A stretch of DNA of 64,000 nt, taken from assembly GCA_964626665.1 (NCBI GenBank), contig CAZVGK010000009.1:1-64000 (forward strand). Reading direction: 5' to 3'. A program made the position numbers and the translations under genes. This document shows positions 28,979-52,248 of the stretch, one piece after another. The notes below the pieces were generated by a model. That model made no database searches. It was not told where the DNA came from and worked only from the letters and a program-made list of their open reading frames with translations. The stretch's first letter is position 1, and the number at the start of each line of letters is the position of its first letter. The DNA comes from an uncultured Gemmatimonadota bacterium. Lineage in GTDB: Bacteria > SM23-81 > DAOVCL01.

Positions 28979-31204
28979 ATGCGTTGGAAAATGTCTTTGC
29001 TAATCCTATCTCTTTTAGTTGGTTCCTCGGTGATGGGAACAGAGTTAGAGGAGATAAGGAAGGCTATAAGGGAGAAGGGGGCGAAATGGGAGGCGGCAGA
29101 TACTTGGATCTCCAAGTTGCCACCGCAGGAAAGGAAAAGGTTTCTTGGAGACAATTTGGCTGATGATTTCTCAAAAGCCCCAGGCAAAGAGATCAGAGGG
29201 ACCAAGACCGTTCCTACTGAATTTGACTGGAGGACCAAGGATGGCCACTTCTGGATGACTCCAGTAAAAGATCAGGAGAATTGCGGTGCCTGCGTTGCCT
29301 TTGGGACAGTAGGAGCTTTGGAGGCAAATATAAAGATCCGAGCCGACAACTTCTGGATTATGCCCGATCTCTCTGAACAGCATCTCTTCTCTTGTGCAGG
29401 AGGTGACTGCGGTTATGGGATGTCCGTCTATGCGGGGATGAATTATCTCCTCAATCATGGAACACCAGATGAGGAGTGTCTTCCCTATACTCAGGTGGAT
29501 GACAATTGCAGTGAAACCTGCTCTGATTGGGAGGAGAGAGCTCGGGGGGTAAATACCTGGGGATGGACGAGCAAGACCATCGCAAGCATAAAGCAGGCTA
29601 TCTATGACTATGGACCGGTAGCCGGCCATTTTGATGTCTACGCCGATTTTTTCTCCTACAATGGTGGCGTATATGAGCATACCTCAGGTGGCTACGAAGG
29701 AGGGCACTGTATCACCATAGTTGGTTGGAGTGACAGCTCCCTATGCTGGATCTGCAAAAATAGTTGGGGACCTGGTTGGGGGGAATACGGCCCCTACCCG
29801 GACAGCACCAAAGGTTGGTTCAGGATTAAGTATGGGGAGTGCGAAATTGAATACAAGAAGGCAGCCTGGATGGTCCCCATTATCAAGGGCCCTGATGGGA
29901 TGGTCCTCCATGATACCTGTTTTGGGTTTGTTTTGCTACCGGATTCATCTACCTCTGATACTTTGACTATCTCGAATGTAGGTGATAGTCTAGACTTTTA
30001 TTTAATTCTTAGTCATTCTCAGAATTGGCTCACCCTGGATGTGATAGCAGACACTTTATCGCCAGCTGAGAGTGTCAAAGTTGGTTTTGACATTGCTACA
30101 ACGGGATTGTCCGGAGGAACCTATTCTGATACTATTGAGGTGGCTGCCAGTGACTCTGAAGGGGTAGTGCTCTATCGGATGTATGTTCCAGTGCACTTAG
30201 AGGTTAGTCCGTTGTTTGTAAGGGGAGATTACGATGATACCGGTGATTTAGCCATGCCAGATGCTCTTAATCTTCTGCTTTGGAAATATCATCAACCCGG
30301 TGGAGTGGCACCTCCCTGTGAGGACGCTGCCGATTACGATGATGATGGAAACATTGCTATGCCTGATGCTTTGGGATTGCTTCTTTACAAATATCATCAG
30401 CCTGGAGGGGTTCCTCCAGCTCCACCCTATCCTGATTGCGGTTTAGATTTTACTGAAGATGGGCTTGAATGTGCTACTTATACCCATTGTCTGAAAGCCG
30501 TTAAATCTATGGTTCTCACTCCAACAAGTGTGAAAAAGGCGATTAACAGAGTCAAGGTCAAGAATTGTTATGGGGCCAAGGATGGCTTGGTAGTTGTTCC
30601 TGTGGAGCTTACTAACAAGGCTGAGCTGAGAGGATTTGAGTTTACGGTCAACTACGATCCTGCTCTTGTTACTGCGATAGAGGTTAGAGGTGGAGATGGA
30701 TATGATTTCTTTGCTCCCTGGATAGATAATGAGGCAGGTAAGGTTACCGTTGGCTGTGTTCCTGATATGAGTATGGAGGAGCCATTTGCGGCTGGTCAGA
30801 GGGGAGTAGCTGAGATTGCCTTTAAGGCCAAGGCTGATGCCGGGTTGAAGCTATCTGATGTGGCCTTGTATGGGTCTAAGGCGGAGGCAGTGGATGCTCG
30901 TTGGGTGAATGGGGTAGTGAAGGCAGGAGCAGGGTTACCTAAGGAGTTTGCCCTCAGCCAGAACTATCCAAATCCCTTCAATCCTGTCACTCAGATCAGG
31001 TATGCTCTACCTATGGACTGCCAGGTGAGGCTAGATATCTACAATGTGGTAGGGCAGAGGGTAGCTATTTTGGTAGATGATCATCAAAAGGCTGGATACA
31101 AGGTAGTTAGCTGGAATGCTCAGGATGTGGCCTCTGGTGTCTATTTCTACAAGCTGACTGCTGGCAATTTCACTTCCATCAGGAAGATGGTCTTACTGAA
31201 ATAA
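28979..31204 (+). CDS. C1A papain-like cysteine peptidase with dockerin-like, cohesin-like and CTD modules
   Basis: FDWR, QENCGAC, LSEQ, GGHCITIVGW, WICKNSWG; FVRGDYDDTGD...CEDAADYDDDG; VVVPVELTN...GFEFTVNYDP. Confidence 0.88.
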   Translation: MRWKMSLLILSLLVGSSVMGTELEEIRKAIREKGAKWEAADTWISKLPPQERKRFLGDNLADDFSKAPGKEIRGTKTVPTEFDWRTKDGHFWMTPVKDQENCGACVAFGTVGALEANIKIRADNFWIMPDLSEQHLFSCAGGDCGYGMSVYAGMNYLLNHGTPDEECLPYTQVDDNCSETCSDWEERARGVNTWGWTSKTIASIKQAIYDYGPVAGHFDVYADFFSYNGGVYEHTSGGYEGGHCITIVGWSDSSLCWICKNSWGPGWGEYGPYPDSTKGWFRIKYGECEIEYKKAAWMVPIIKGPDGMVLHDTCFGFVLLPDSSTSDTLTISNVGDSLDFYLILSHSQNWLTLDVIADTLSPAESVKVGFDIATTGLSGGTYSDTIEVAASDSEGVVLYRMYVPVHLEVSPLFVRGDYDDTGDLAMPDALNLLLWKYHQPGGVAPPCEDAADYDDDGNIAMPDALGLLLYKYHQPGGVPPAPPYPDCGLDFTEDGLECATYTHCLKAVKSMVLTPTSVKKAINRVKVKNCYGAKDGLVVVPVELTNKAELRGFEFTVNYDPALVTAIEVRGGDGYDFFAPWIDNEAGKVTVGCVPDMSMEEPFAAGQRGVAEIAFKAKADAGLKLSDVALYGSKAEAVDARWVNGVVKAGAGLPKEFALSQNYPNPFNPVTQIRYALPMDCQVRLDIYNVVGQRVAILVDDHQKAGYKVVSWNAQDVASGVYFYKLTAGNFTSIRKMVLLK
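30575..30951 (+). repeat. 377-bp cohesin-like module, identical to 36391-36767
   Basis: No differences found by eye. Confidence 0.9.
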
Positions 31205-31476
31205 GGGCGAGCCTACCGAGGAGAAAACACTTTGGGTTCCTCGTCCGTGAGGACGTAGTTACATTTTTGTGGCTTGTTTTCCTGCAAGACCAATTTGATA
31301 AACATCTTCTCAATGCGTGATTTCGGCGAATATAAGATTCAAACATTTGTGAGAGAAAAGCAGGAAGTGAGTCAAAGGTGTCCTCTTTGAATCTGGGGGT
31401 GATGTTTATAGGATAAAGGTGGGGTATTGGTCGAGGAGACAAAGACATTTAGCTTTTATATAAGAGAAGGCAAACA

Positions 31477-34400
31477 ATGAAAACAAAGATTCTGTTTGTA
31501 GCTTTGATATCGGTTATGCTTGCCTTACCCTTAGGATTTGGTAAGGTAAATGCACAGCAGTGTGCCGATTCTATGATTGCTTCTAATAGAGAGGGATATA
31601 CCGGTGATACTGGGATAATTGTCCCCATTTATGGCAAGGTTTGTGGCCTAGATATAGGGGGGGATTTAGAGGATTTGGATGGGGTTAGTTTCGCCATGCA
31701 ATATGACACCAGCCTTGTGGTCTGCGACACTATTTTGTATGATGTAAGTGATCCTGTTTATCCAAGTTTTCACGATAGCATTCCCAATCCCTTCTTTTGG
31801 GCCCCTTACATTGACCCTTCTGGCTATGTTACCGTAGGGCTTGCCTTTGCTATGCTGGGAACACCTGACATACCACCCGGCCGTTATCGTATGTTTGATT
31901 TAGTTTTTAAGGTAAAACCGGGGGCTCCTCCGGGGGTTACACCTTTAGACATTGAAGATGGTGTTGGCGGTATGAGGAATGCTTTTACTTATGTAACCAC
32001 TGATGTTTATCCCGAATTGATAGATGGCGATTTTATTGTTCTACCAGATTCTTTAACCTTAATATTTGACCCCTTGCCTCCATATAGATTGGGTGAAGGG
32101 GAAAACCTGGGTGTCGAGGTTACAGCTATTGATCCTAATCCGACCCATTTTGTTACTCTAAGTGCCGCTGGTTTAATGGAGAACATGAGTTTTCCGGAGA
32201 CCAGCGATTTCTTTTTTGCAACTGGCACCTTCACCTTCTATCCAAACCAGTGCCAGGCGGGTGTATATAATGTTGTGTTTTTTGCCGACTGTGACTTTGG
32301 TTGCCATGTAGAAATCCCGGTAACGATGACCGTGGATAACATCAACCGGACTCCGAGACTCGATGCTGGTCCTGATCGAGCTATTATAGCAGGAGATACT
32401 TTGACCTTCACCGTTACTGCCACCGATCCCGATTACTGGGAATGTGGCGATGATACCCTCACCCTGAATGCCACCAGTCTTCCTGGGGCGGCAACTTTTG
32501 TTCAAGACAGCGATACGACAGGCATATTTAGTTGGGTCCCTGATTTAGCAGATACGGGAGAGTATACCGTTATCTTCTCCGTTGAGGATCTTGCTGGTAC
32601 TACCGATAGCGAACCAGTAGAGATTACTGTCTCGCCACACACTCTGGTTATAATGACGATTCCCGATTCTCCTCCGACCACTGTGAATGAAGGATCGGCC
32701 TTGATTTTCGATGTTAGAGCCATTAATTCTTCTTCAGAGCATACGGTGGATCTGTACGCTATTTATTTGCCAGCCAACGCTAACTTTCCTTCTGAAACTG
32801 GTGCTGGCTCTGTGCAATCCACATTCACTTTTAACCCGAATTACTGTCAGGCAGGGAGTGATAGTGTCGTCTTTGAAGCGCATTGTTCTGGAAATCTTAC
32901 CACCACTCGTACGGTGTATCTTACTGTGAACGATATACCCAAGGCTCCAAATATAGAAGCAGGCGGTCCATATAGTGCCAAACCAAATCATCTTTTGACT
33001 TTTAGGGTAATGGCAGCCGATCCAGACCTGAAATGTGGCGATGAGGCCCTCATTTTAAGCGCCCTTAATCTCCCCGGAGGCGTTACCTTTAGCCAGGATA
33101 GCGACACTACGGGAGTTTTCAATTGGATTCCCGTTGAAGCCGATACGGGATCTTACACGGTTACCTTTATCGTCGATGATCACACGGCACTGGCTGATAG
33201 TGATCAGGCTACAATTAAAGTAGTTGTCTATGACTTTGAAGATGTCACCGATGATGCTTTTGTGGGGGATGAAGGGCGAGGGCATGGAGTGGCCTGGGGT
33301 GACTGGGATGGGGATGGGGATCTGGATATTTACATTGTGAATTATAACGAGCCCAATGTTCTTTATCGCAACAACGGCGATGGCACCTTTACGAATGTAG
33401 CTGCGGCCGCTGGTGTTGCTCATGCTGGTGCTGGACACGGTTCGGCTTGGGGAGATTTCGACAACGACGGCGATCTTGACCTTTATGTCACCAATGATGG
33501 GCCAAACATTCTTTATCGCAACAATGGTGATGGTACCTTCACTGATGTTACCAGCACGGCGGGTGTAGGGAACATTGATTGGGGAAGGGGTACCGCCTGG
33601 GGCGATTTTGATAACGATGGTAACTTAGACCTCTACGTTGTTAATAGTTTATCGACTCAAACGAGCGTTCTTTATCGTAACAATGGTGATGGCATCTTCA
33701 CCGATGTTACCAGCACGGCCGGTGTCGAGTTTATGGGAAATGGAAGAGGGGTAGCTTGGGGTGACTGCGACTCCGACGGTGATTTGGATCTATATGTAGT
33801 AAACCATTGGCCAGGGGGAAGTGCTCTTTATCGCAACAACGGTGATGGCACCTTTACAAACGTTGCTAGTTCAGCCGGGGTGGGGAACAATGGGTTGGGT
33901 ACGGGCGTTGCCTGGGGCGATTATGACTCAGACGGCCACCTGGATCTCTCTGTCGTGAATTATGGTGGCTACGGAAACTTCCTGTATCGCAACAACGGTG
34001 ATGGCACTTTCAACGACGTAACCGGGACTGCCGGAGTGGGCCTGGTGGATAATGGATATGGTACTGCCTGGGCGGACTATGATTTAGATGCTGACCTCGA
34101 CCTCTATGTGGTTAACTATCAAGGAGGGCGAAAAGCTTACGGAATTAACATTCTCTATTCTAACAACGGTGACGAAACTTTCTCTGACGCTACCGAAAGG
34201 GCAGGTGTAGGAGATCCTGGCTACGGATACGGAACCGCTTGGGGTGATTACGACGACGATGGTGATTTGGACCTCTATGTGGTGAACCACGATCAAGCCA
34301 ATATTCTCTATCAGAATCAGACTGACAATGTCGACTTCATTAAGGTGGTAGTTGAGGGTGCAGCATATTTAGGTCCCGGGTTTAGCAATAGAGATGGCAT

Positions 34401-37020
34401 GGGGGCCAAGGTTGAGGTTCACCAAGCGGGGACCGAGACTCTACTTGGTTTTAGGGAGGTAAGAGGTGGATCTGGTTACTGTTCAATGAACTCTTTAGAA
34501 GCTGAGTTTGGCTTAGATCACAACTATGCTTACGATCTGAAGGTCACATTCCCTGCAAGTGGTGTGGTCAGGGTTTATTCTAACCTAACCACAGGTCAAA
34601 AAATTCTCGTCTATGAGGAAAGAGCACCATTTGCCTTTTCGCTTATCTCGCCTGCAGATGGAGACACGGCTTGGAGTCTAACTCCGACGATGACCTGGCA
34701 AAGGGCTGTTGATCCTGATCCAGGTGATATCGTCACTTACACTGTTTACTACTCCGAGGATAATACTTTTGCCACCTATGATTCTCTTCCTGATGTCGGA
34801 GATACTACCTGCAGTTTACCGGAACTAACCGATGATACCGTTTACTACTGGAAGGCAAAAGGAAGGGACAATTGGGGCCTGGAGGCCTGGAGTGTTGAGA
34901 CCTTCAGTTTCAATGTCTACTTTCCGGAAGCGCCGAATGCTTTCGATTTACTATACCCTACTGATGGAGATACGATCTATGCTGGCATGGTGACACTGGA
35001 TTGGGAGGAGGCAACCGAACCCGATCCTGGAGATAGTGTCCTTTATACTCTCCATTATAGTATTTCTCCTGAATTTCATCCAGATTCTACAAATATTGTT
35101 GACAGTCTAAGTGAGAGCCAGTATCTCATAGTCTCGGGGTTACCTGACGATGCAAAGATCTATTGGAAGGTGAAGGCCTTTGATATCTTTGGTTTAGAGA
35201 CCTGGAGCAAACAGATCGATTGGAGTTTTTATGTATATACTCCGGAAGCTCCACATACCTTCAGTCTTATTTCACCAGCAGATAGAGATACAGTTTGGAG
35301 TTTCACTCCGACCTTAATCTGGCAGAGGGCCGTTGATCCTGATCCAGGTGATAGCGTCACTTATACTCTCTACTACTCCACAGATAGTGCTTTCGTTGTT
35401 CAGGATTCAGTATCCCCTCTTGCAGATACTACTTGCACATTGCCAATACTGACAGATGACTCTACTTACTACTGGAAGGTAAAGGGAACAGATAATTTTG
35501 GTTTAGAGGCCTGGAGTGTTGAGATTTTTAGTTTCAATGTTTATCTCGTTGAACCCCCTGACTCGTTCGATCTTTTCACTCCAATAGATGGTGATACGGT
35601 TTACGCAGGTATTCCAATTAGGTTAGACTGGGAGGATGCATCGGATCCTGATCCGGGAGATATTATTCTCTACGCCCTGTACTTAAGTTTAAATTCAGAT
35701 TTTTCAGATTCGATGGCGATCGATAGCCTATCAGAGAGTGAATGCACCCTCGATCAGACAAAGGCTTCAACCAAAACTCTCCAAGTTAGAAACCCCGGAC
35801 GCCAAGCCCTCCCAGAAATGAAACTGGAAATGCAAGAGGTGGAGAGTAATAATGCAAGCGAATTTATTGAAAGTAGTTGGAGTATTCCTAAGAGCAACCT
35901 TGATAGCCTGTTAGCTGACACCACCTATTATTGGAAGGTGAAAGCTTATGATAGATGGGGAACTGAGAAATGGAGTAACCAACTGAATTGGAATTTTTAT
36001 GTGCAATTTAGCTCGCTTTTCATCAGGGGTGACTACGACGCAAATGGAGAGTTGGCTATGGCTGATGCCCTTGGGCTTCTAGTGTGGAAGTATCATCAGC
36101 CTGGTGGGGTTCCTCCTCCCTGTGAGGATGCTGCGGATTACGATGACAACGGGGATATTTCTATGGCCGATGCTGTAGGGCTTCTGCTCTTCAAATATCA
36201 TCAGCCTGGTGGGGTTCCTCCTCCACCTCCCTATCCAGATTGCGGGCCCGATCCCACGAAAGATGGTTTGAGCTGTGACAGCTATCCTCCCTGTAATTGG
36301 CCCCCCAAGGCTACCGAGCTTGTAGTATCTTCTCTTCTGGTAAGTGTAGAGGTTGCCCCCAATGTGGTGAAGGTGGGAGATGGCTATCTTGCCAAGGATG
36401 GCTTGGTAGTTGTTCCTGTGGAGCTTACTAACAAGGCTGAGCTGAGAGGATTTGAGTTTACGGTCAACTACGATCCTGCTCTTGTTACTGCGATAGAGGT
36501 TAGAGGTGGAGATGGATATGATTTCTTTGCTCCCTGGATAGATAATGAGGCAGGTAAGGTTACCGTTGGCTGTGTTCCTGATATGAGTATGGAGGAGCCA
36601 TTTGCGGCTGGTCAGAGGGGAGTAGCTGAGATTGCCTTTAAGGCCAAGGCTGATGCCGGGTTGAAGCTATCTGATGTGGCCTTGTATGGGTCTAAGGCGG
36701 AGGCAGTGGATGCTCGTTGGGTGAATGGGGTAGTGAAGGCAGGAGCAGGGTTACCTAAGGAGTTTGCTCTGAAACAGAATTATCCCAACCCATTCAACGC
36801 TATCACCGAGATCAAGTATACTTTGCCAAAGGGTTGTTATGTGGGACTGGAAGTCTATAACGTCTTAGGCCAGAAGGTGGCATGTTTGGTGGATAGGAAA
36901 CAGAAAGCAGGATACAAGACAGCCAGGTGGGATGCGGGGTCTCTCTCCAGTGGGGTCTACTTTTACAGGCTTCAGGCTGGGGATTTTGTGCAGATGAGGA
37001 AGATGGTGCTTTTGAAATAA
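31477..37020 (+). CDS. Secreted scaffold-like protein: cohesin-like, Ig repeats, 7 FG-GAP repeats with ASPIC/UnbV (CRTAC1-like), FN3-like repeats, dockerin-like, cohesin-like, CTD
   Basis: Signal peptide VNA-QQ; seven W(G/A)DxDxDxxLD motifs; NRDGMGAKV..REVRGGSGY; YWKxK units; FIRGDYDANG. Confidence 0.82.
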   Translation: MKTKILFVALISVMLALPLGFGKVNAQQCADSMIASNREGYTGDTGIIVPIYGKVCGLDIGGDLEDLDGVSFAMQYDTSLVVCDTILYDVSDPVYPSFHDSIPNPFFWAPYIDPSGYVTVGLAFAMLGTPDIPPGRYRMFDLVFKVKPGAPPGVTPLDIEDGVGGMRNAFTYVTTDVYPELIDGDFIVLPDSLTLIFDPLPPYRLGEGENLGVEVTAIDPNPTHFVTLSAAGLMENMSFPETSDFFFATGTFTFYPNQCQAGVYNVVFFADCDFGCHVEIPVTMTVDNINRTPRLDAGPDRAIIAGDTLTFTVTATDPDYWECGDDTLTLNATSLPGAATFVQDSDTTGIFSWVPDLADTGEYTVIFSVEDLAGTTDSEPVEITVSPHTLVIMTIPDSPPTTVNEGSALIFDVRAINSSSEHTVDLYAIYLPANANFPSETGAGSVQSTFTFNPNYCQAGSDSVVFEAHCSGNLTTTRTVYLTVNDIPKAPNIEAGGPYSAKPNHLLTFRVMAADPDLKCGDEALILSALNLPGGVTFSQDSDTTGVFNWIPVEADTGSYTVTFIVDDHTALADSDQATIKVVVYDFEDVTDDAFVGDEGRGHGVAWGDWDGDGDLDIYIVNYNEPNVLYRNNGDGTFTNVAAAAGVAHAGAGHGSAWGDFDNDGDLDLYVTNDGPNILYRNNGDGTFTDVTSTAGVGNIDWGRGTAWGDFDNDGNLDLYVVNSLSTQTSVLYRNNGDGIFTDVTSTAGVEFMGNGRGVAWGDCDSDGDLDLYVVNHWPGGSALYRNNGDGTFTNVASSAGVGNNGLGTGVAWGDYDSDGHLDLSVVNYGGYGNFLYRNNGDGTFNDVTGTAGVGLVDNGYGTAWADYDLDADLDLYVVNYQGGRKAYGINILYSNNGDETFSDATERAGVGDPGYGYGTAWGDYDDDGDLDLYVVNHDQANILYQNQTDNVDFIKVVVEGAAYLGPGFSNRDGMGAKVEVHQAGTETLLGFREVRGGSGYCSMNSLEAEFGLDHNYAYDLKVTFPASGVVRVYSNLTTGQKILVYEERAPFAFSLISPADGDTAWSLTPTMTWQRAVDPDPGDIVTYTVYYSEDNTFATYDSLPDVGDTTCSLPELTDDTVYYWKAKGRDNWGLEAWSVETFSFNVYFPEAPNAFDLLYPTDGDTIYAGMVTLDWEEATEPDPGDSVLYTLHYSISPEFHPDSTNIVDSLSESQYLIVSGLPDDAKIYWKVKAFDIFGLETWSKQIDWSFYVYTPEAPHTFSLISPADRDTVWSFTPTLIWQRAVDPDPGDSVTYTLYYSTDSAFVVQDSVSPLADTTCTLPILTDDSTYYWKVKGTDNFGLEAWSVEIFSFNVYLVEPPDSFDLFTPIDGDTVYAGIPIRLDWEDASDPDPGDIILYALYLSLNSDFSDSMAIDSLSESECTLDQTKASTKTLQVRNPGRQALPEMKLEMQEVESNNASEFIESSWSIPKSNLDSLLADTTYYWKVKAYDRWGTEKWSNQLNWNFYVQFSSLFIRGDYDANGELAMADALGLLVWKYHQPGGVPPPCEDAADYDDNGDISMADAVGLLLFKYHQPGGVPPPPPYPDCGPDPTKDGLSCDSYPPCNWPPKATELVVSSLLVSVEVAPNVVKVGDGYLAKDGLVVVPVELTNKAELRGFEFTVNYDPALVTAIEVRGGDGYDFFAPWIDNEAGKVTVGCVPDMSMEEPFAAGQRGVAEIAFKAKADAGLKLSDVALYGSKAEAVDARWVNGVVKAGAGLPKEFALKQNYPNPFNAITEIKYTLPKGCYVGLEVYNVLGQKVACLVDRKQKAGYKTARWDAGSLSSGVYFYRLQAGDFVQMRKMVLLK

Positions 37021-37098: not shown

Positions 37099-37938
37099 AT
37101 GCAGCTTACAGAAGTAGGGCAGCGTCTGAAAGATAAAAGTCTGGACGGGCGGTTGTTATGGGAACTGGAGCATGGCTTTGAGCTCTCACCACGGGAAAGC
37201 GGATTAATTGTTGAAACAGTTCGTTCATACTACAGTCAAGCACCAAAGGCTAAAAGTGGTCGGGTGGGTTTATGGGTTGTTAAACTTGATGCCAGTGTTG
37301 GTAAGCCGCTTAATGAATTGCCAAAGGTTCAGGTATGGGTAACGCTGGATGGTGGTCAGGAGGATTTAGAGGCATACCGGTCATACGGTCATGCTGGATT
37401 ACGCAGGCAAAAACTCCTTCGTATTACCGAGGAGATTGTTGATCAGTATGGTATTGCCACCCAGGAGGATTTGGCGCGTCTTTTAGGGACGAGTCTGCGC
37501 ACGATCAGGCGGGATATTACCTACCTACAAGGTCAAGGTTTACAGGTTTTAACCAGAGGGGTATACTCTGACATTGGTCCGTCATTAAGTCACAAAGTAG
37601 TTATTGTGGAGCTGTTTTTATCTGGTTCTGTTTATACGGAGATTTGTCGGAGGACGCGTCATTCTGCAAAAGCTGTAAAGCGCTATGTCAATACCTTTGG
37701 GCGGGTAGTGGCTTTACATGAGCGGGGGATTAAGGCACCAGAGGAGCTGGCCAACTATGCGGGCATCAGCAAGAGGTTGGCCACTGAGTATCTGAATTTG
37801 TATTTCCAGGTTAGCAAGAGGGCAGCCTTTAAGGAACGCATCAAAGAGGTGTTGGAACAACTTTCATCGCGCCCCAGTTATCCAGGTGTAGATAAGACTG
37901 GTATGAAAAAAGGGGGTCTGGTGGAGGCTGGACGATGA
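37099..37938 (+). CDS. DUF1670-like HTH protein, paralog A
   Basis: TQEDLARLLGTSLRTIRRDI (HTH); TRG..DIGPSLSHK; RTRHS..AVKRY. Confidence 0.75.
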   Translation: MQLTEVGQRLKDKSLDGRLLWELEHGFELSPRESGLIVETVRSYYSQAPKAKSGRVGLWVVKLDASVGKPLNELPKVQVWVTLDGGQEDLEAYRSYGHAGLRRQKLLRITEEIVDQYGIATQEDLARLLGTSLRTIRRDITYLQGQGLQVLTRGVYSDIGPSLSHKVVIVELFLSGSVYTEICRRTRHSAKAVKRYVNTFGRVVALHERGIKAPEELANYAGISKRLATEYLNLYFQVSKRAAFKERIKEVLEQLSSRPSYPGVDKTGMKKGGLVEAGR

Positions 37939-38816
37939 AGGGATATTATGGGGATCGTCGAGACCGTTTTGCCAGCCTGGAGAAACGGACTTTCAGAACA
38001 GCTTTGATCCATTTGTTGGAGACCGAATACAAGCTTATTGGCAGTCATCGGGTTCTGGAAGCCCTTTCAGATGATGTTGCACAGCTTCAGCAGGAGTATT
38101 TTCCCTTACGGGAGCGAATTGAAGCTGGGACAATCGCCTGGGTGACCACCAAGAAGACGGTCCGTAAGGCGAGTTACGGCAAACGCACCGAGGACTATGA
38201 AAGTGTGATGGTGTATTTACCGTTGGTTACGCGGGGCGATTTGGATAAACGCGTTTTTGTAAAGGCGGGGACCAAGAACAGCAATTATGTGGTAAATCGG
38301 GAGCGTGATTTGGAGATCATGGCCCGTTTGGTAAAGTCGGCCTGGGATCAGGGTGGTATGATTTCCCAGGCGGAGCTATGCGTACTGATGAATCGCAGCT
38401 TGACGACGATAGGTAAGTACATAGCGGAGTATGAGGCCAGACATCCGGATGACCCCTTACCGTTAAAGGGGTACATCCTTGATCAAGGCAGTCGCCCAAC
38501 GCACAAAGGCATCATCCTGAACCTTTATGAGCAGGGTATAGATCCGACTGAAATTGCGCAACGCACAAACCACGGACTCGATGCGGTTGATCGCTATATC
38601 AAAGCGTATGAGCGGGTAAAGGGTCTTTATAAGAAGGGACTGGATCGTGCTGAGATTAAGAAAGTGACCGGTTTGAGTTTGAAGGTGATTGACGCATATT
38701 TGAGCATAGTGAAACACTTTCATCCATCGGAGGGTAAACCTGATGTGCTTCTGGCAAAAAAAAGACCCTCAAAAGCAAAACCCTCTCAAAAAAAGCGTAT
38801 AGGTCATTTGGCCTGA
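37935..38816 (+). CDS. DUF1670-like HTH protein, paralog B
   Basis: ATGA overlap with paralog A; QGGMISQAEL; DQGSRPTHK; RTNHG..AVDRYI. Confidence 0.75.
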   Translation: MKGYYGDRRDRFASLEKRTFRTALIHLLETEYKLIGSHRVLEALSDDVAQLQQEYFPLRERIEAGTIAWVTTKKTVRKASYGKRTEDYESVMVYLPLVTRGDLDKRVFVKAGTKNSNYVVNRERDLEIMARLVKSAWDQGGMISQAELCVLMNRSLTTIGKYIAEYEARHPDDPLPLKGYILDQGSRPTHKGIILNLYEQGIDPTEIAQRTNHGLDAVDRYIKAYERVKGLYKKGLDRAEIKKVTGLSLKVIDAYLSIVKHFHPSEGKPDVLLAKKRPSKAKPSQKKRIGHLA

Positions 38817-39440: not shown

Positions 39441-39704
39441 TTACCCAAAGAGTTTGTCCACTCCCAGAGCAATTCCAGCTCATTCAATGCTGTCACTCAG
39501 ACCAAATATGCTTCGCCTAAAGATTACAAAGTCAAGTTGGGAGTTTACAACGTCTTAGGCTAAAAGGTGGCTACTTTGGTTAATGGTCACCAGAAAGCCG
39601 AATACAAGACCGTCAGGTGGGATGCGGGCTTCCTCTCCAGGGGCATTTACAGATTAAAGGCTGGTGATTTTGCGCAGATGAGGAAGATGGTTTCGCTGAA
39701 GTAA
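39441..39704 (+). pseudogene. Decayed CTD remnant
   Basis: LPKEFVHSQSNSSSFNA...YNVLG*KVATLV...WDAG...RKMVSLK*; in-frame TAA at 39561; NYPNPFN eroded; 6-nt deletion. Confidence 0.85.
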
Positions 39705-39909
39705 AGCCAAAATGTATGAGGAGGACTCCAAAGGGCCCTCTTCTCCTTTTAGTTGAAGACTACCTCGTTGGTTGTCTGTCCACTGGTGATTTATAATGCA
39801 AAGATAGCTAATAGCCAACCTTTGGCGCGAAATTTAAATAAGGAAGCGATTATTAAAACACTTTTCGCTGTCAGTTTTATGTTGCAAATTAAAAACTCGG
39901 GAGGGAAGA

Positions 39910-42300: not shown

Positions 42301-44607
42301 ATGAGAACCAAAATTCTATTTGCGATTTTGATATCGGCTATGTTGGTTTTGTCCCTGGGACTTGGCAAAACAAGTGCACAGTGTGCCGATTCTATGATTG
42401 CCTCTAATGGGGAGGGATACCCCGGTGATGCAGGGATAATTGTTCCCATCTATGGCCAAGTTTGTGGTCTAGATATAGGGGGAACCTTAGAGGATTTGGA
42501 TGCGGTCAGCTTTGCCATGCAATATGACACCAGCCTTGTGGTCTGCGACACTATTTTGTATGATGTGAGTGATCCTGTTTATCCAAGCTTCTACGATAGT
42601 ATTCCCCATCCCTTCTTCTGGGCTCCTTACATTGACCCCTCTGGTTATGTCACCGTAGGGTTTGCCTTCCATATGCTTGGAGATCCTGACATACCTCCTG
42701 GTTATTATCGGATGTTTGACTTAGTTTTTAAGGTAAAGTCTGGGGCTACTCCGGGGGATACGCCATTAGACATTGAAGATGGAATAGGCGATATAACAAA
42801 TGCTTTCACTTATGTAACCACTGATGTTTATCCCGAGAAAGTTGACGGCAGCTTTACAATTTTGGGTGAGAGCTATGGTGTTATTGCAGGAACAGTTACT
42901 AATGAAGAGACAACGGGGCCTATAATTGGGGCATATGTTACTGCCAATGGATTTTCTGATCAGACAGATACCGAGGGATATTATCTTGTTCCTAACCTCT
43001 CGGTTGGAAGCTATAACGTAGTTGCTTCTGCTATTGGCTTTGAATCAGATACTGTCTCAGAAGTTCAAGTTACAGTCGGTGAAACTACTACAGTCGATTT
43101 TGCTTTAACTCCTTCGGAGTGTGTGAACACTCTTTTCGCTGGCAATGGTTCTGGAATAGGAGGAGATACAGTTGTTATTCCTATTACTGCTATGAACTGT
43201 GGAGAATTAGACGGCTACACAATCAGTTTGTCCTACAACTACAATGAATTGGAGGCAGAAAGAGTAGACACGGCTGGTACAGCAACAGGAGCGGTATCAC
43301 CAGTAGCTCTATTCGAGACCTATTCTTGCCATTTCGGCGATGAGGGATGGGTAGCCATCAAATGTGTGATCAGCGAAGATCATTCAAAGTTCATTCCACC
43401 TGGCCCTAATAATGTTTTGGCCAAGGTCGTGTTTTCAGCCAGGCCTGCTCCTCCCGATACAAGTGATCTGAAATTTAGAATCTATCCTGAAGCTACATGC
43501 CCGGGAACACGCATAGAGAACGAATTCATTTATGGAACCCTTGAATGCAAGCCCAATTTAATCCCTGGTTCCTTCATCACGCTTCCTGCTTTTGTACGAG
43601 GCGATTACGATGGCAATGGTCACTTTTCTATGGTTGATGCGCTCGCTTTATTGGCGTGGGTATATCACCAGCCAGGTAGATTTCCAACCACTTGCATGGA
43701 TGGTGCTGACTACAACGATGATGGGGCTCTATCTATGGCTGACGCTGTTAGCGAGCTTACATGGTTATATCATCAGCCTGGTGGAATGCCACCAGCTCCC
43801 CCTTACCCGACGTGTGGAATAGATCCTACACCTGACGACCCCTTTGAGTGTAGGTGGTATGAACTCTGTATGAGTAATGATAAGGTAATCTATGCTAAAC
43901 CCTCTCCGGTTAACTTTAAGGGCGCTGCGAACAGGGTTGTAGTGGGCCAACAGGCTTCAGTATCTGAGGGGCACAATGTAACTGTTCCGGTGGTTGTGAA
44001 AAATGCGGAGGCACTGGGTGGTTTGGAACTTTCAATTAACTTTGATCCTCAAGTTTTAATCGCTAAATCGGTGGATAATTCTGAGGATTTTGATCTGTTT
44101 TTCCCCGACATAAATAATCGGGCCGGTAGGGTTACGATAGGATGTGTTCCTAGCCTAAGGATGGAGAAAGGATTGCAACCCGGTAACCATCAGATAGCGA
44201 ACGTTACTTTTGAAATTGATGTGAATAAGTTTGAGCAGAGAGTAATTTTAAAGTTATCTGATGTTGCTCTTTATGATTTGGGAGTGAATAGGTTACCTGC
44301 CGAATGGCAAAACGGGTGGGTGAAATCTACTTTATCACTACCTAAGGAATATGTCTTGGAGCAAAACTTCCCTAATCCTTTTAATCCGGTGACTCGGATT
44401 CGGTATGCTTTGCCTCATAACAGTAAGGTGAGATTGGAGATCTACAACATTGTTGGGGAGAGGGTAGCGGTTTTGGTGGATGGACATCAGAAGGCAGGAT
44501 ACAAGGTAGCTAGCTGGAATGCTAAGGATATGGCCTCTGGTGTCTACTTCTATCGGCTGAGGGCGGGTGACTTTACTTCCATCAAGAAGATGGTCGTCTT
44601 GCGGTAA
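42301..44607 (+). CDS. Non-catalytic secreted adaptor: cohesin-like, carboxypeptidase-regulatory-like, cohesin-like, dockerin-like, cohesin-like, CTD
   Basis: N-terminal module shared with 31477, 45029 and 49246; GDTVVIPI...DGYTISLSYN; FVRGDYDGNG; VTVPVVVKN...GLELSINFDP. Confidence 0.75.
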   Translation: MRTKILFAILISAMLVLSLGLGKTSAQCADSMIASNGEGYPGDAGIIVPIYGQVCGLDIGGTLEDLDAVSFAMQYDTSLVVCDTILYDVSDPVYPSFYDSIPHPFFWAPYIDPSGYVTVGFAFHMLGDPDIPPGYYRMFDLVFKVKSGATPGDTPLDIEDGIGDITNAFTYVTTDVYPEKVDGSFTILGESYGVIAGTVTNEETTGPIIGAYVTANGFSDQTDTEGYYLVPNLSVGSYNVVASAIGFESDTVSEVQVTVGETTTVDFALTPSECVNTLFAGNGSGIGGDTVVIPITAMNCGELDGYTISLSYNYNELEAERVDTAGTATGAVSPVALFETYSCHFGDEGWVAIKCVISEDHSKFIPPGPNNVLAKVVFSARPAPPDTSDLKFRIYPEATCPGTRIENEFIYGTLECKPNLIPGSFITLPAFVRGDYDGNGHFSMVDALALLAWVYHQPGRFPTTCMDGADYNDDGALSMADAVSELTWLYHQPGGMPPAPPYPTCGIDPTPDDPFECRWYELCMSNDKVIYAKPSPVNFKGAANRVVVGQQASVSEGHNVTVPVVVKNAEALGGLELSINFDPQVLIAKSVDNSEDFDLFFPDINNRAGRVTIGCVPSLRMEKGLQPGNHQIANVTFEIDVNKFEQRVILKLSDVALYDLGVNRLPAEWQNGWVKSTLSLPKEYVLEQNFPNPFNPVTRIRYALPHNSKVRLEIYNIVGERVAVLVDGHQKAGYKVASWNAKDMASGVYFYRLRAGDFTSIKKMVVLR

Positions 44608-44644
44608 TATAATTCCCAAAGATAGGGAAACAAAAATTATAAAG

Positions 44645-45028: not shown

Positions 45029-46639
45029 ATGAAGGGCAAAAATGTTTTTACAACTGTAGTTTTAGTTGCTTTTGTTTTTCTTTCGGTATTTGTTTCCAAC
45101 GCAAAAGCACAATGTGTAGATTCGATTATTGTATCTGATGCGGTTGGTGCACCGGGTGATACCGGTGTAGTTGTTCCCGTGTATGGCAGAGTCTGTGGCC
45201 TGGATATAGGGGGGAATTTGGAGGATTTGGATGGCGTTAGCTTTGCCATGCAATATGATACCAGCCTTGTGGTCTGCGAGGAGGTTTTGTATGATGTGAG
45301 TGACCCTGTCTATCCGAGTTTTCACGATAGCATTCCCAATCCCTTCTTTTGGGCCCCTTACATTGACCCTTCTGGCTATGTCACCGTAGGGCTTGCCTTC
45401 GCTATGTTGGGAACACCTGACATACCGCCTGGGTATTATCGGATGTTTGATTTAGTTTTCAGGGTAAAGCCTGGGGCTGCTTCGGGGGATACGCCATTGG
45501 ATATTGAAGATGGAGTAGGCGATATAACGAATGCTTTCACCTATGTAACTACTGATATCTATCCGGAGAAGGTTGATGGTGTCTTTACGATAGGGGAATT
45601 TTATGGTTCTATTGTGGGAGTTGTAATGAATGCGGCAACAACTGCTCCTATAAAGAATGTGGCAACTGTTACTGCTGACGGGATTGAATTATCTACCGAT
45701 GCCCAAGGGGAATACTTTATACAGGACCTGCCAACGGGTTCCTATGATGTCGTGGCAACTGCACCCGTCTGTTTGCCAGATACAGCTGAAGGGGTAGTAG
45801 TTAATACAGGTGAGACCACAGTTCTCGATTTCGGCCTAGTTTGCTTAGACTCCCTATGGATGCCGGACAAAATCTGGGGTGGGCGCTGGTTGACTCGTAT
45901 AGTCCCCGTGTATGGTAAGTTTACTGGCTGGCTTGATACTAACGATGTGCTTCAGGACTTAGATGGAATCAGTATTGCTTTCCGATACGATCCTGACTTT
46001 TTGATGGGAGATTCAGTGGTTTATGACATTTCAGATCCTGATGTGCCCTGTTTACACGACAGTATTCCCGAGCCCTGGTTTTGGGGCCCATATATTGACC
46101 CTTCTGGCTGGATCACCGTAGGGGTTGCCTTCGCAATGCTGGGGGAGCCTGATATCCCGCCTGGAAGGTATCATCTATTTGACATCTATTTTCACAAGTT
46201 AGTTGAGGATGAATGGACTGAAGTGGAATTTGCTGATGGAGCTGGAGGTTTGGGAATTGAATTGACTTATGTGACGACTCGGGTTTTCCCTTGGTTTAGT
46301 AATGTTCCCTGTTCGGTTTACACACTCGTAGAGGAAGTTGAAGATGGAGGACTCTTACCCAGTGCCTACTTGTTAGCTCAGAACTATCCAAATCCATTCA
46401 ACCCGAAGACCGGGTTTCTCTATTCCATTCCTCGTCGCTCTATGGTACGATTGGAGATATTCAACCTCTTGGGGGAGAGAATCAAAATTCTGGTTAATGA
46501 GGAAGAGGAGGGCGGGAATTATAAAGTTACTTGGGATGGGAAAGATGAAACAGGTTCCTCTGTAGCCAGTGGGGTTTACCTCTATCGTCTAAGGGCTGAT
46601 GGGTTCTCCTCCACCAGAAAGATGGTACTTTTGAGATAG
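45029..46639 (+). CDS. Non-catalytic secreted protein with two cohesin-like modules, a regulatory-like linker domain and a FlgD-type CTD
   Basis: VPVYG...DLDG.S.A..YD...HDSIP.P.FW.PYIDPSG..TVG.AFAMLG.PDIPPG occurs twice. Confidence 0.75.
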   Translation: MKGKNVFTTVVLVAFVFLSVFVSNAKAQCVDSIIVSDAVGAPGDTGVVVPVYGRVCGLDIGGNLEDLDGVSFAMQYDTSLVVCEEVLYDVSDPVYPSFHDSIPNPFFWAPYIDPSGYVTVGLAFAMLGTPDIPPGYYRMFDLVFRVKPGAASGDTPLDIEDGVGDITNAFTYVTTDIYPEKVDGVFTIGEFYGSIVGVVMNAATTAPIKNVATVTADGIELSTDAQGEYFIQDLPTGSYDVVATAPVCLPDTAEGVVVNTGETTVLDFGLVCLDSLWMPDKIWGGRWLTRIVPVYGKFTGWLDTNDVLQDLDGISIAFRYDPDFLMGDSVVYDISDPDVPCLHDSIPEPWFWGPYIDPSGWITVGVAFAMLGEPDIPPGRYHLFDIYFHKLVEDEWTEVEFADGAGGLGIELTYVTTRVFPWFSNVPCSVYTLVEEVEDGGLLPSAYLLAQNYPNPFNPKTGFLYSIPRRSMVRLEIFNLLGERIKILVNEEEEGGNYKVTWDGKDETGSSVASGVYLYRLRADGFSSTRKMVLLR

Positions 46640-46665
46640 AGCCGAGTGGGAGGTTTGCGGAATCC

Positions 46666-46701: not shown

Positions 46702-46744
46702 TGTTGGGTAGTGGAATATTAGCAGAAATATGGCAAAAATAAAC

Positions 46745-46773
46745 TTGACAAAATTTAATGAGTTTAGTATATT
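46745..46773 (+). promoter_or_regulatory. sigma70-type promoter
   Basis: TTGACA-17 nt-TATATT. Confidence 0.6.
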
Positions 46774-47373
46774 TAGTGTTGAATTTGGTTGTATAAACTA
46801 AGAAAGAAGAAGTCATAAGGAACTTGGCTGCTTTCTTAAGGGTGTGGTTCCAATGCCATAATGCGGAGTTGGCGCATTCTCGGTTTCGTAGCTATAAAGG
46901 TAAGAGCCCAAAGGCTAGACAGCGGAAGTGAGGGGATCAATTGGTGGTTCTACCTTGTGATGTTTATACGGTTTAGGCGATAATAAAACTCCCCAGCATA
47001 AGCCCCAAGGGGAAGATCACACAACTCTCCCAGTTGGGAGTGCTCGCCTTTAGGTCTTCCTCGAAGATCTTTGTCTGAGCAAACTCCTTTACGGTTTGAG
47101 CTAATACCTGCGACACCTCTTCTGTTGCTCTATATACCCAGGCCTCACCTTCTGGTCTCCCCTTGAAAAGGACATCCTCAATAGGACCGCTTCAGAGCTG
47201 ATTACTCAAGAAAAACACATAGACTCTCCTCTTAGGGACGCTTCATCCAGGCTATTGGCAAACCTCCTAACCTAAACGTTGTTGCATCATAAGATGGACT
47301 GTTCAAAAATCATGAAGTATGCCGTATTCATATTTAAAGTCTTTATAGGACACGACGAACAAGGAGGAACAAG

Positions 47374-48918: not shown

Positions 48919-49245
48919 TTGTGAGGAACCAAGATAATAATTCAGGCCCGATAGCCTTTAAGGGTGATCCTGGAGGTGATCAAAATGTGCACCTGAGGGT
49001 CTTCTCTTTCAATCTTTAGCTTTTAACCTCAAGAAGGAGGCACAAGATGACCAGCATAAAGATCTGATAGCATTTTCTCCAATTTTGCGGCAATTGTCTG
49101 TTTTTTAATATAAAGTTAAAACATTTGCAAAGCAGAAAAATGGGCCAAGAGCTCTCAGTGAATCTGGGAGGTGGTGTCTGTGGGAAAACAGTGGAGTATT
49201 GGACAAGTGCGCAAAGGATTTTTAGCTTTTTTAGGAGGAGGAATA

Positions 49246-52200
49246 ATGAAAACAAAGATTCTACTTGCAGTTTTGCTATTGGCTATGCTGGCCTTGCCCT
49301 TAGATACTGGCAGGGTGAACGCGCAGCAGTGTGCCGATTCTATGATTGTCTCTAATGGAGAGGGATATCCCGGTGATACAGGGATAGTTGTTCCTATATA
49401 TGGCAGAGTTTGCGGCCTGGATATAGGGGGGAATTTAGAGGATTTGGATGGGGTAAGCTTTGCCATTCAATATGATACCAGCCTCGTCGTCTGCGAGGAG
49501 GTCTTATATGATGTAAGTGATCCTGTTTATCCGAGTTTTCATGATAGTATTCCCAATCCTTTCTTTTGGGCTCCTTACATTGACCTTTCTGGCTATGTCA
49601 CTGTAGGTCTTGCCTTTGCTATGCTGGGAACACCTGACATACCGCCAGGATATTATCGGATGTTTGATTTAGTTTTTTCCGTTAAACCTGGGGCTACTCC
49701 AGGGAATACGTCTTTAGACATTGAGGATGGCGTTGGCGGTATAACGAATGCCTTCACCTATGTAACCACGGATGTTTATCCGGAGAAGGTTGATGGTGTT
49801 TTTACGATTTTGGCTCATTATGGTGGAGTTTCGGGGATAGTTGAGAATAAGGATACTTCCCAACCTATCTCAGAGGGAGTGGTTAAGATTAGCGGTGGTG
49901 ATTCAACTTTTACTAACTCCAGTGGGTATTATTACCTTGACGCCACTACTGGTCCACACACCGTCATCGCCAGGGCAATGGGCTTTGATCCCGATACGGC
50001 AGAGGTCACAGTTGTAGAGGGAGATACACTCACGGTCAATTTCTCCTTGACCCCTCATTATGGGAGCATTGGTGGAACGGTTGCTGATTCGGAATTTGTG
50101 CATATTTCCGGAGCTGTAGTGACTGCAGGGGGTAAAAGTGATCTCACCAGCGGTGATGGAACATACCAGATCGATAACCTTTTGGTCGGAACCTATACGG
50201 TTACCGCTTCGGCCAGCGGGTATTATCAGAATGTCAAGTCAGGGATTGAGGTTCAGGAGGGGGAGGTAACCACTGTTGATTTCGTTTTGGCTCGCCAGGG
50301 GCTTGCTTCGCCAGTGAATCTGGAGGCTATATCTGAGTTGGATAGCCATGTCCCCCTCAACTGGCAATCGCCCTATTCGGGCATTTCTATTCTCTTGGTG
50401 GATGATGACGGGAGTTCCGGAACCGGATATGCTGATGTCTCAAACTATTTTACCGACGTCTTGGACTCTGCTGGATATTCTTATACACATCTGGAGGTCG
50501 AATATCCTAACAATGGCCCCGATTCAACGGTTTTAAGGGATTATGATGTGGTTATCTGGTTCACCGGGGAGACGGCGGGGAATCATCCAGAAGATACAAT
50601 CACCCCTGATGATGAGGTCAACCTGGCCGCTTATCTCAGATCTGGGGGAACCCTTTTTCTCTCCTCTCAGGATTACTTCAAGGACAGGTATCCCGGTTCA
50701 GGGGCCTTCACTCCCGGGGATTTTCCTTATGATTATCTGCAGGTTGACTCCACCTACCAGGATTACTGGGTCGGACAGACCACGGGCCAGATCTATGGGG
50801 AGGATAACTCAATAGCTCAGGGACTCTGTTTTACTACCCAGGATCCGTTTAGCAGGAAGGATGGGCTGTATGTAGATAGGATTTTTACTCAGGCAGTTGA
50901 ACTCTTAAAGGATAATCCGAGTGAAATTCCAGGTCCTGATCGAGGGATCTGTGCCCTTCAGCATGACAGTGGTGTTTACAGGTTTGTGTTTACCACCTTT
51001 TCTTTCCCTGGCTTGGTCGATTCGTATACACCTTTATGTTCAGGGAGAAGAGTTAGGCTGATGTACAATATCATCCAGTTTCTGGCCCATGGAGAGGTAG
51101 GTGAAGGAGGGCTTCTGTTGAATTATAGCCTCTATCGGGGCGATTCTCCTGGATTTGAGCCTTCACCCTCTAACCTTATAGCTATCTTATCCCCTTGGGT
51201 GACCATTTATGATGATACCTCAGTTACCAATGGACGGACTTATTACTATAAGGTTACTGCAATCTATGAAGGAGGGGAGAGTGATCCTTCCAATGAGGTC
51301 TCGGCAATGCCCTGGGTGGCCCATAACCCCGAGCCATTTAGCCTTCTTAGCCCAGCAGATGGCGATACCGTCTGGCAGCTATCGGCAACCCCGACCTGGC
51401 ATCAGACGACGGATCCCGACCCTGGAGATACCTTAACCTACAGTCTCTTCTGGGATACGGACTCTGCTTTCAGCCATCCGGATAGCTTACCAGGCCTCAC
51501 AGATACCACCGTTGTTATCTCTGACCTTTCCGATGAGACCACTTACTGGTGGAAGGTGAAGGCGGTGGATACCAACACATCCGGCCGATGGAGCGAGGAG
51601 ACATTTAGCTTTACGACTTATTACCCGGAGCCACCGGAGGAGTTCAGTCTCATTTATCCCCAGGATGGGGACACGGCTATATCTTTACTGCCGACTTTAG
51701 CCTGGCATCCAGCCCCTGATCCCGATACTGGTGATAGGATAACCTATTCGCTGATTTATTCAACCCACAATGATTTCTCAGATTCGGTGATGATCCCCGG
51801 GCTGGAGGATACAAGCTATGCCTTTGCGGACAGCCTGCAGCCGGAGACAGACTACTACTGGAAGGCGTTGGCCAAAGACAGGTTTGATCTAATCACCCAG
51901 TGTGCGGCCTCCTATCACTTTACTACTCGTAAGTCCGGTGTGATGGCTATTACTACCCCCGAGTTGCCCAAAACCTATTCCCTTTCTCAGAACTTCCCCA
52001 ACCCCTTCAATCCAGTTACCCAAATTAGCTATGCCCTTCCTAAGCCAGGCGGGGTTAACCTCTCGGTTTACAATATATTGGGGGAGGAGATAACTGCTTT
52101 GATCGATATTCAGCAGGAGCCGGGATATTATCGGGTCGTTTGGGATGGAAGGGACGAATTAGGAAGGGAAGTCAGTTCTGGCATCTATTTCTACAGGCTG

Positions 52201-52248
52201 AGGGCGGGGGATTTTATCTCGGTGAGGAGAATGGTGCTTTTAAGGTAG
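49246..52248 (+). CDS. Secreted protein: cohesin-like, two regulatory-like domains, LLVDDD domain, FN3-like repeats, FlgD-type CTD
   Basis: AGGAGG RBS before ATG 49246; MKTKIL signal peptide paralogous to 31477; ILLVDDDG...YDVVIWFTGE; YYYKVTA and YWWKVKA. Confidence 0.8.
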   Translation: MKTKILLAVLLLAMLALPLDTGRVNAQQCADSMIVSNGEGYPGDTGIVVPIYGRVCGLDIGGNLEDLDGVSFAIQYDTSLVVCEEVLYDVSDPVYPSFHDSIPNPFFWAPYIDLSGYVTVGLAFAMLGTPDIPPGYYRMFDLVFSVKPGATPGNTSLDIEDGVGGITNAFTYVTTDVYPEKVDGVFTILAHYGGVSGIVENKDTSQPISEGVVKISGGDSTFTNSSGYYYLDATTGPHTVIARAMGFDPDTAEVTVVEGDTLTVNFSLTPHYGSIGGTVADSEFVHISGAVVTAGGKSDLTSGDGTYQIDNLLVGTYTVTASASGYYQNVKSGIEVQEGEVTTVDFVLARQGLASPVNLEAISELDSHVPLNWQSPYSGISILLVDDDGSSGTGYADVSNYFTDVLDSAGYSYTHLEVEYPNNGPDSTVLRDYDVVIWFTGETAGNHPEDTITPDDEVNLAAYLRSGGTLFLSSQDYFKDRYPGSGAFTPGDFPYDYLQVDSTYQDYWVGQTTGQIYGEDNSIAQGLCFTTQDPFSRKDGLYVDRIFTQAVELLKDNPSEIPGPDRGICALQHDSGVYRFVFTTFSFPGLVDSYTPLCSGRRVRLMYNIIQFLAHGEVGEGGLLLNYSLYRGDSPGFEPSPSNLIAILSPWVTIYDDTSVTNGRTYYYKVTAIYEGGESDPSNEVSAMPWVAHNPEPFSLLSPADGDTVWQLSATPTWHQTTDPDPGDTLTYSLFWDTDSAFSHPDSLPGLTDTTVVISDLSDETTYWWKVKAVDTNTSGRWSEETFSFTTYYPEPPEEFSLIYPQDGDTAISLLPTLAWHPAPDPDTGDRITYSLIYSTHNDFSDSVMIPGLEDTSYAFADSLQPETDYYWKALAKDRFDLITQCAASYHFTTRKSGVMAITTPELPKTYSLSQNFPNPFNPVTQISYALPKPGGVNLSVYNILGEEITALIDIQQEPGYYRVVWDGRDELGREVSSGIYFYRLRAGDFISVRRMVLLR

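Follow-up and report, generated by a model that had tools for sequence, protein, structure and literature searches.

A dockerin–cohesin–CTD tail on diverse predicted surface proteins of an uncultured Gemmatimonadota bacterium

The window analysed here is a stretch of 64,000 nucleotides, the first 64 kb of contig C9 (CAZVGK010000009.1), from the 3.17-Mb genome (99.65% complete) of an uncultured Gemmatimonadota bacterium. In its interval 28979..52248 four genes end in the same tail, which consists of a dockerin, a cohesin and a C-terminal domain (CTD) of the type IX secretion system (T9SS); a fifth gene with this ending, carrying DUF7901 cargo, lies on contig C3. The tail is probably a species-specific means of joining surface proteins and not a dedicated protein-digesting machine. 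The fuller reading, a lineage-coded, non-cellulosomal cohesin–dockerin network of T9SS cargo that links diverse surface proteins, has in our judgement about an even chance of being right. An earlier note on this DNA had described a cellulosome-like complex built around peptidases; it named the module parts correctly but over-read the protease machine. The genes and modules concerned are listed below.

28979..31204 (+): predicted papain-family (C1) peptidase with Ig-like domain, dockerin, cohesin A and CTD; 741 amino acids (aa) from the ATG at 28979
30215..30490 (+): dockerin 1, with two Ca-loop/helix repeats that share 21 of 26 positions and a Cys-rich C-terminal extension
30551..30928 (+): cohesin class A (cohA), directly after dockerin 1; over the PF00963 cut-off, Z 16.2 to 6kgc_A
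30575..30951 (+): 377-bp stretch identical to 36391–36767, from cohA into the start of the CTD
31477..37020 (+): 1847-aa protein with cohB, Ig repeats, FG-GAP/ASPIC propeller, fn3-like repeats, dockerin, cohA and CTD
31558..32043 (+): cohesin class B (cohB), N-terminal in the 31477 protein
36019..36294 (+): dockerin 2, in the 31477 protein
36367..36744 (+): cohA of the 31477 protein, 97% protein identity to cohA of 28979
39910..41904 (+): second predicted papain-family (C1) peptidase, with dockerin 40849–41124, cohA 41185–41562 and CTD
42301..44607 (+): non-catalytic adaptor candidate with cohB 42379–42864, CarboxypepD_reg Ig domain, third cohesin-like module, dockerin 43591–43869, divergent cohA 43939–44331 and CTD
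43120..43584 (+): the third cohesin-like module (cohC) of 42301; E 3.5e-25 with a broadened custom cohesin hidden Markov model (HMM), no Pfam match
45029..46639 (+): dockerin-less two-cohesin protein with cohB 45110–45595, Ig, cohB 45839–46324 and CTD
49246..52248 (+): dockerin-less protein with cohB 49327–49812, Ig domains, alpha/beta region, fn3-like repeats and CTD

Dockerin and cohesin modules

The two-loop modules that the earlier note had placed at about 30215, 36019, 40849 and 43591 start exactly there, and YHQPG occurs twice in each. HMMs made from the window copies found, among 17,580 open reading frames (ORFs) of the genome, five such dockerins (E ≤1e-45), the fifth being the one on C3, and five cohB copies, a recurrence that is not due to chance. 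The gathering score of Pfam Dockerin_1 (PF00404) was not reached in the window (best match E 0.07, 15.4 bits vs 22.9), and one relative (P0096) is over this cut-off. By sequence, a profile of 11 tandems matches the A. cellulolyticus ScaB dockerin (PDB 4uyp_B) with E 2e-5 and, also in the PDB, the A. fulgidus cohesin with E 1e-3. A model of the 329-residue tail was obtained with pLDDT 92.5 and pTM 0.80, and its residues 1–76 superpose on the dockerin 5m2o_B (Z 9.2, root-mean-square deviation (rmsd) 2.0, 69 residues aligned). As modelled, the two-loop module has the dockerin fold.

Type I dockerins carry Asp or Asn at positions 1, 3, 5, 9 and 12 of the Ca loop (PMC5590126). This rule is largely followed, with positions 1, 3 and 12 conforming in 10 of 10 loops and position 5 in 8 of 10. 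The two repeats of a dockerin are identical at 14–22 of 26 positions, and internal repeat symmetry of this kind marks dockerins with dual-mode binding (PMC5429695). A Cys/Pro/Asp-rich extension of about 30 residues follows the repeats. Since C35 (98%), C86 (96%), D78 (93%) and D82 (91%) of this dockerin are conserved among 153 pairs and C35–C86, D37–D82 and D43–D78 are among the top intra-domain couplings, the sequences point to a disulfide that staples the domain and perhaps to a third metal site, a lead drawn from a shallow alignment.

The VPV...G.(E/D)...N(Y/F)DP sandwich after each window dockerin passes the Pfam Cohesin (PF00963) cut-off in all four cases, and residues 109–239 of the tail model (cohA) match type I cohesins (Z 16.2, rmsd 2.5, 129 aligned). 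Conservation of cohA (n=76) lies on predicted strands 3, 5 and 6 (G140 82%, D164 89%, F165 89%, G180 98%, D184 82%), which are part of the 8-3-6-5 docking face of cohesins (PMC5429695). The second sandwich of about 160 aa, which the earlier note had seen in 31477, 42301, 45029 (twice) and 49246, is cohB, an N-terminal module of about 162 aa with five copies (31558, 42379, 45110, 45839, 49327) that occurs genome-wide only in this cluster; four copies are 78–87% identical and the fifth 44–47%. Pfam scans gave no match at any of the five copies and no catalytic domain in the four genes that carry them, the 31477 protein included. In the model (pLDDT 95) cohB adopts a cohesin fold, with Z 18.1 to 6kgc_A and 4uyp_A (rmsd 2.0, 141 aligned; first non-cohesin structural match only Z 10.2; Foldseek E 4e-9). 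The models of dockerin, cohA and cohB thus all bear out the folds that had been proposed, together with the division into two cohesin classes. The cohC module at 43120–43584, the fifth YHQPG gene and a CTD on every interval gene outside a DUF1670 pair were not part of the earlier description.

Predicted export by the T9SS

All seven CTD genes of the interval score above the TIGR04183 cut-off, and residues 244–329 of the tail model superpose on the PorU CTD (Z 10.3). Each subunit has a signal peptide-like N-terminus, as judged by eye. Furthermore, SprA_N and PorV matches over cut-off are present in the genome, a PorU-like C25 gene lies beside PorV, and about 114 ORFs carry a PNPF-type C-terminal motif. 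These matches support the CTD-dependent export assumed earlier. As every subunit has its own type A CTD, the dockerin would not be needed for anchoring.

YHQPGG as a probable lineage code

The YHQPGG motif had been taken for an unusual functional signature. This was rejected, as the motif is missing from all 17 dockerins compared from four other genomes. In congeners its place is occupied by FGVPG/FKVPG or by a shorter loop, the start of helix 1 changes along with it, and both repeats of one dockerin change together. The alignments therefore identify YHQPGG as a probable lineage code that is replaced by other motifs in related lineages.

Orthologous proteins show where this replacement occurs. 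P0022, the orthologue of 31477, has 74–85% identity through its middle 1,300 residues and 52, 49 and 37% in cohB, dockerin and cohA, and P0013, the orthologue of 49246, has 76–89% except in cohB (53%). The closer orthologues P0003, P0007 and P0008 retain the code, while P0012 and P0023 are uniformly distant and so uninformative on it. On this comparison the orthologues appear as mosaics of conserved cargo with divergent plugs (dockerins) and sockets (cohesins). In nine proteins with both ends, the identities of cohB, dockerin and cohA correlate with each other (Spearman 0.70–0.73) and none correlates with that of the CTD. The median identities within and between five related genomes are 61 and 44 for the dockerin, 60 and 36 for cohA, 80 and 41 for cohB, and 63 and 62 for the CTD, which indicates that the dockerin and cohesin modules are homogenised within genomes. 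Gene conversion appears to take place because a stretch of 377 bp is identical in 28979 and 31477, a trace that we read as recent gene conversion or duplication between genes of unrelated cargo.

Cargo of the tail and the link to peptidases

Two dockerin genes had been assigned to papain-like peptidases. Peptidase_C1 (PF00112) was indeed found in 28979 and 39910 (E 3.6e-40 and 3.9e-39) with the Gln/Cys/His/Asn motifs in place, and both products are predicted C1 peptidases. They represent 2 of 5 dockerin genes. The genome encodes 4 C1, 16 C25 and 3 S8 peptidases over cut-off, and a dockerin is present in 2 of these 23. The cargo scan covered 42 of 54 tail proteins, with 12 omitted as proteins of the same genome, 42301 orthologues or short fragments; seven have a peptidase domain, one a GH5 domain, and the rest propellers, beta-helices, Ig repeats or nothing named. 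No cellulase, hemicellulase or cellulose-binding carbohydrate-binding module (CBM) was detected in Pfam scans of seven proteins. The tail is cargo-agnostic, and the system is only weakly linked to peptidases.

These counts bear on the cellulosome-like protease complex, in which dockerin enzymes would dock on cohB adaptors (42301, 45029, 49246, 31477) and cohA would serve as an X-module-like spacer. Its sockets are credible, since cohB has a clean cohesin fold (Z 18.1) and is homogenised more tightly than any other module (in non-orthologous genes of the same genome 83% and 77%, vs 39% and 30% for their cohA), and an adaptor role of 42301 and 45029 is plausible. Both peptidase genes are also syntenic with cohB genes in relatives, and similar complexes were proposed in silico (PMC6461901, PMC8542988). 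The small share of peptidases among dockerin genes and related tails speaks against it, as do the 21 C1/C25/S8 peptidases without a dockerin, the CTD that the enzymes carry themselves and the conserved docking face of cohA. Moreover, no protein with more than three cohesins was found genome-wide (the maximum being three in 42301 and two in 45029), nor was a long scaffoldin with tandem cohesins. We regard this complex as rather unlikely.

Pairing within or between proteins

All five YHQPG dockerins are followed by a cohesin and then the CTD. The linker between dockerin and cohA is about 22 residues long, with quartiles of 21–23 in 54 tails. The pTM of 0.80 for the tail lies above the ceiling of about 0.75 calculated for a model with one floating domain, and the tail is modelled as one compact unit; in the PDB, no chain gave an alignment spanning both dockerin and cohesin. 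The one-to-one occurrence of both modules in 5 of 5 genes, the tight linker length, the compact three-domain model and the transfer of the tail as a block (the 377-bp stretch) would suit a closed intramolecular clasp, and the conserved face of cohA also speaks for pairing in cis. In that case the dockerin would bind only its own cohA, as a rigid Ca2+-stabilised spacer or folding aid beside the CTD, no multi-protein complex would form, and cohB would have another ligand or none.

Two of the cohB proteins in the cluster (45029, 49246) lack a dockerin. In relatives, P0056 and L110:544-996 encode secreted proteins of about 145 aa with a conserved short N-terminal segment and one dockerin with the local code. 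These stand-alone dockerins have neither cohesin nor CTD, one is encoded directly upstream of a cohB-like gene, and they might cap the assembly or compete with it. A clasp would not lead one to expect cohB proteins that lack a dockerin, or stand-alone dockerins of matching code. Nor is the finding that cohB changes with the dockerin at the opposite end of an 1850-aa orthologue, or that repeat symmetry is maintained with P15–P50 and Y25–Y60 covarying. In addition, AlphaFold single-chain models do not separate cis from domain-swapped trans arrangements. On balance the clasp seems improbable.

The internal repeat symmetry was counted among the signs of trans use, and so was a congener locus with a dockerin of another type. 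There, L124:2898-9717 (G001) encodes a beta-helix-like protein that combines a classical dockerin with a cohesin and a CTD, and the gene immediately after it codes for a three-cohesin CTD protein.

The domains might also serve generically in adhesion or as stalks, without any pairing, and their within-genome similarity would then result from neutral conversion between tandem genes for secreted proteins. Domain shuffling is extensive among the about 114 CTD proteins of the genome, a shared fold proves no function, Pfam Dockerin_1 was not reached and inter-domain covariation was not seen. The CTD, which is as exposed to conversion, nevertheless has no within-genome excess (63 vs 62), conservation is concentrated on the docking face, and dockerin–cohesin adjacency recurs in 153 distinct pairs. 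Generic domains are therefore very unlikely.

Several observations weigh against the lineage-coded network itself. Position 9 of the Ca loop is A, S, T or V in 10 of 10 loops and not the usual Asn (PMC5590126). In mean-field analyses of 76 tails and 153 pairs, which are shallow alignments (effective 61 and 136), inter-domain covariation was no better than with shuffled pairing (top z 6.8 and 5.0 vs shuffled maxima of 5.3–8.1). The compact tail unit of the model may not be formed on the docking face. No stand-alone dockerin gene was found in the host genome, and cohA of 42301 is only 37–40% identical to the other cohAs, though its dockerin shares the code. The within- and between-genome medians come from few, related genomes with non-independent pairs (10 of 12 within-genome cohB pairs from the host genome), and a tandem cluster undergoing neutral gene conversion might show this within-genome pattern as well. 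A complex prediction for cohB (49327–49812) with the 28979 dockerin and two Ca ions scored 0.21 and 0.23 vs the mark of 0.32; the controls were not folded, and the result is uninformative either way.

Proposed mechanism

For the lineage-coded network we propose the following sequence, of which we infer export, calcium binding and all interactions. Each subunit would leave the cell independently through an SprA/PorV-type system by means of its own type A CTD. The portable tail (dockerin, linker of about 22 residues, cohA, CTD), with its folds taken from models, is fused to varied cargo: the two predicted papain peptidases, the protein with the FG-GAP propeller, the adaptor candidate and the DUF7901 protein. 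A Ca2+-loaded dockerin would rest on its own cohA as a closed monomer and could swap onto the cohA of a neighbour or onto the cohB sockets of 31477, 42301, 45029 and 49246, cohB probably being the preferred trans socket. Chains and branches of mixed proteins would result at the cell surface. Plugs and sockets are seen on one code per lineage; gene conversion would hold them there, and subunits would join their own kind as a result of the shared code. Proteolysis would be one payload and not the organising purpose of the network.

A more far-reaching and rather doubtful version is a scaffold-free, self-polymerising surface mesh, in which each cargo brings its plug and socket along with an export tag; the pair would remain closed while being exported and exchange partners in trans once at the surface. 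The lineage code set by gene conversion would admit only subunits of the same lineage, giving kin-restricted retention of secreted enzymes, and the dockerin would form a distinct subtype, stapled by a disulfide and possibly holding a third metal (D37, D43, D78, D82).

Distribution of the tail and comparison with known systems

An assembly artefact as the source of the cluster is ruled out by a metagenome contig, which matches window positions 21558–59812 at 99.98–100% identity. The gene order M14, C1, FG-GAP, C1, adaptor, then two-cohesin gene, BNR and cohB gene recurs as partial copies in four related metagenome loci. Seven genomes from the host phylum were present in the genome collection searched. 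A single-sequence scan of named genomes with the tail gave no relative, whereas an alignment-based scan did; the best full-length matches were metagenome-assembled genomes titled Ca. Zixiibacteriota or 'bacterium', and the remaining matches were mostly dockerin-only, in Planctomycetota. Among the best 150 of 5,065 representatives (E ≤1e-10), 51 end in the same dockerin–cohesin–CTD tail, 94 have several dockerins but no CTD, and 5 belong to neither group.

The 94 CTD-less proteins (e.g. P0028, P0045, P0069) have alternating dockerins (D) and cohesins (C), as DCD, DCDCD or longer, with linkers of 10–11 residues, and this family looks undescribed. In L026:6761-12943 (G001), an RHS-repeat/DUF6443 protein, a dockerin–cohesin tandem is internal, with about 400 residues after it.

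Three further dockerin–cohesin–CTD tails of other sequence types are present in the host genome (C2:144633-147905, C20:20803-26148, C44:3-1589). The C44 dockerin passes Pfam Dockerin_1, and the tails on C2 and C20 were read by eye; the C2 protein carries an HExxH motif. A 307-aa ORF (G000:C2:175104-176024) starts with a lipobox-like N-terminus, its C-terminal domain weakly resembles a cohesin (custom HMM E 5.7e-5), and its product is a possible membrane anchor candidate.

In the literature consulted, peptidase-bearing cohesin–dockerin complexes outside Clostridia have been proposed from genomes only (PMC6461901, PMC8542988). The planctosome of freshwater Planctomycetes, a hypothetical model (Andrei et al. 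2019, PMC6461901), shares non-cellulosomal cohesin/dockerin modules with peptidases and an adaptor with both dockerin and cohesin. It is drawn with a lamin-tail/P-domain anchoring protein, an HYR adaptor and M12B/M14 zinc peptidases, whereas the present locus has C1 peptidases, and each dockerin subunit has its own cohesin and T9SS CTD. Pfam scans of the cohesin/dockerin proteins found no lamin-tail/P-domain anchor, HYR adaptor or dockerin-bearing M12B/M14, and the adjacent M14 gene has no dockerin. The cellulosome-like structure of Ca. Stygibacter (Cloacimonadota), likewise described in silico, shares dockerin-bearing peptidases (there S8 and C25), a CTD-bearing cohesin protein and an uncultured anaerobic host (PMC8542988). 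Its described scaffoldin has 3,755 aa and carries CBM2/3 besides tandem cohesins, and its enzymes end in dockerins, whereas here a long scaffoldin and CBM are absent and the dockerin lies inside the protein, ahead of cohesin and CTD. The system resembles these non-cellulosomal complexes in its proposed working, yet it is not a cellulosome, having neither long scaffoldin nor cellulases, and it does not match the planctosome as drawn.

Amy4 of the R. bromii amylosome also has cohesin and dockerin on one protein; binding of its dockerin to its own and to other proteins' cohesins was shown, which sets a precedent for self-binding, and multimers were proposed (PMC4611034). It is a single, sortase-anchored enzyme of a Gram-positive bacterium, whereas here an adjacent portable pair with a T9SS tail occurs on many unrelated cargoes. 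Clostridial type I pairs (PDB 6kgc, 4uyp, 1ohz) and the non-cellulosomal A. fulgidus cohesin (2xdh) share the nine-strand cohesin fold (Z 15–18), two Ca-loop/helix repeats and internal symmetry. The modules described here are 14–22% identical to them and differ in the dockerin extension of about 30 residues, in a residue other than Asn at position 9 and in the lack of cellulases or CBM on these proteins by Pfam. Non-cellulolytic surface proteins with one dockerin and several cohesins are also known from anaerobic methanotrophic archaea (ANME), where they are tied to S-layer and ABC-binding proteins and described without a T9SS tail (PMC9012536). A description of the dockerin–cohesin–CTD tail was not found in the accessible literature, and the supplements of PMC6461901 and PMC8542988 and the survey of Peer et al. 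2009 may list such architectures.

Neighbouring genes

37099..38816 (+): two DUF1670/HTH (helix-turn-helix) genes, single copy in the genome, missing at this position in relative L127
47374..48918 (+): BNR beta-propeller with CTD, without cohesin or dockerin, syntenic in a relative

Because L127 lacks that stretch, the DUF1670/HTH pair is read as an insertion that does not belong to the cohesin–dockerin system. A decayed CTD-coding remnant with a stop follows it at about 39441–39711, and L127 is without the whole stretch.

Window positions 1–12885 encode two very large Ig/cadherin-like repeat proteins, one of at least 1990 aa that runs off the contig start and one of 2284 aa. The first has no PNPF CTD, ends in a different region of about 300 aa and may depend on its CTD-bearing neighbour. 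Three more CTD proteins, including an M14 carboxypeptidase, are encoded upstream at 16759–28879, none with dockerin or cohesin; the C-terminal half of a 1738-aa protein in this region is also present in the product of 22001, a gingipain-like C25 gene. The gene at 52882–53922 (+) has an in-frame TGA near the N-terminus; if this TGA is read as selenocysteine, the product is a UshA-like (seleno)protein of 346 aa, with a match to NF041198 (E 2.6e-45) that stays below the cut-off. Promoter and terminator scans gave chance-level counts (25 vs 24.9 and 15 vs 16.0).

Significance

Since Pfam misses this dockerin type and cohB, such systems are under-counted in uncultured phyla. The locus is a small complete parts list, with five plugs, three socket classes and code variants that occur naturally in congeners. 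Should the tail polymerise, assembly could proceed by a route without a scaffoldin, and designer complexes could draw on the modules for new orthogonal tags.

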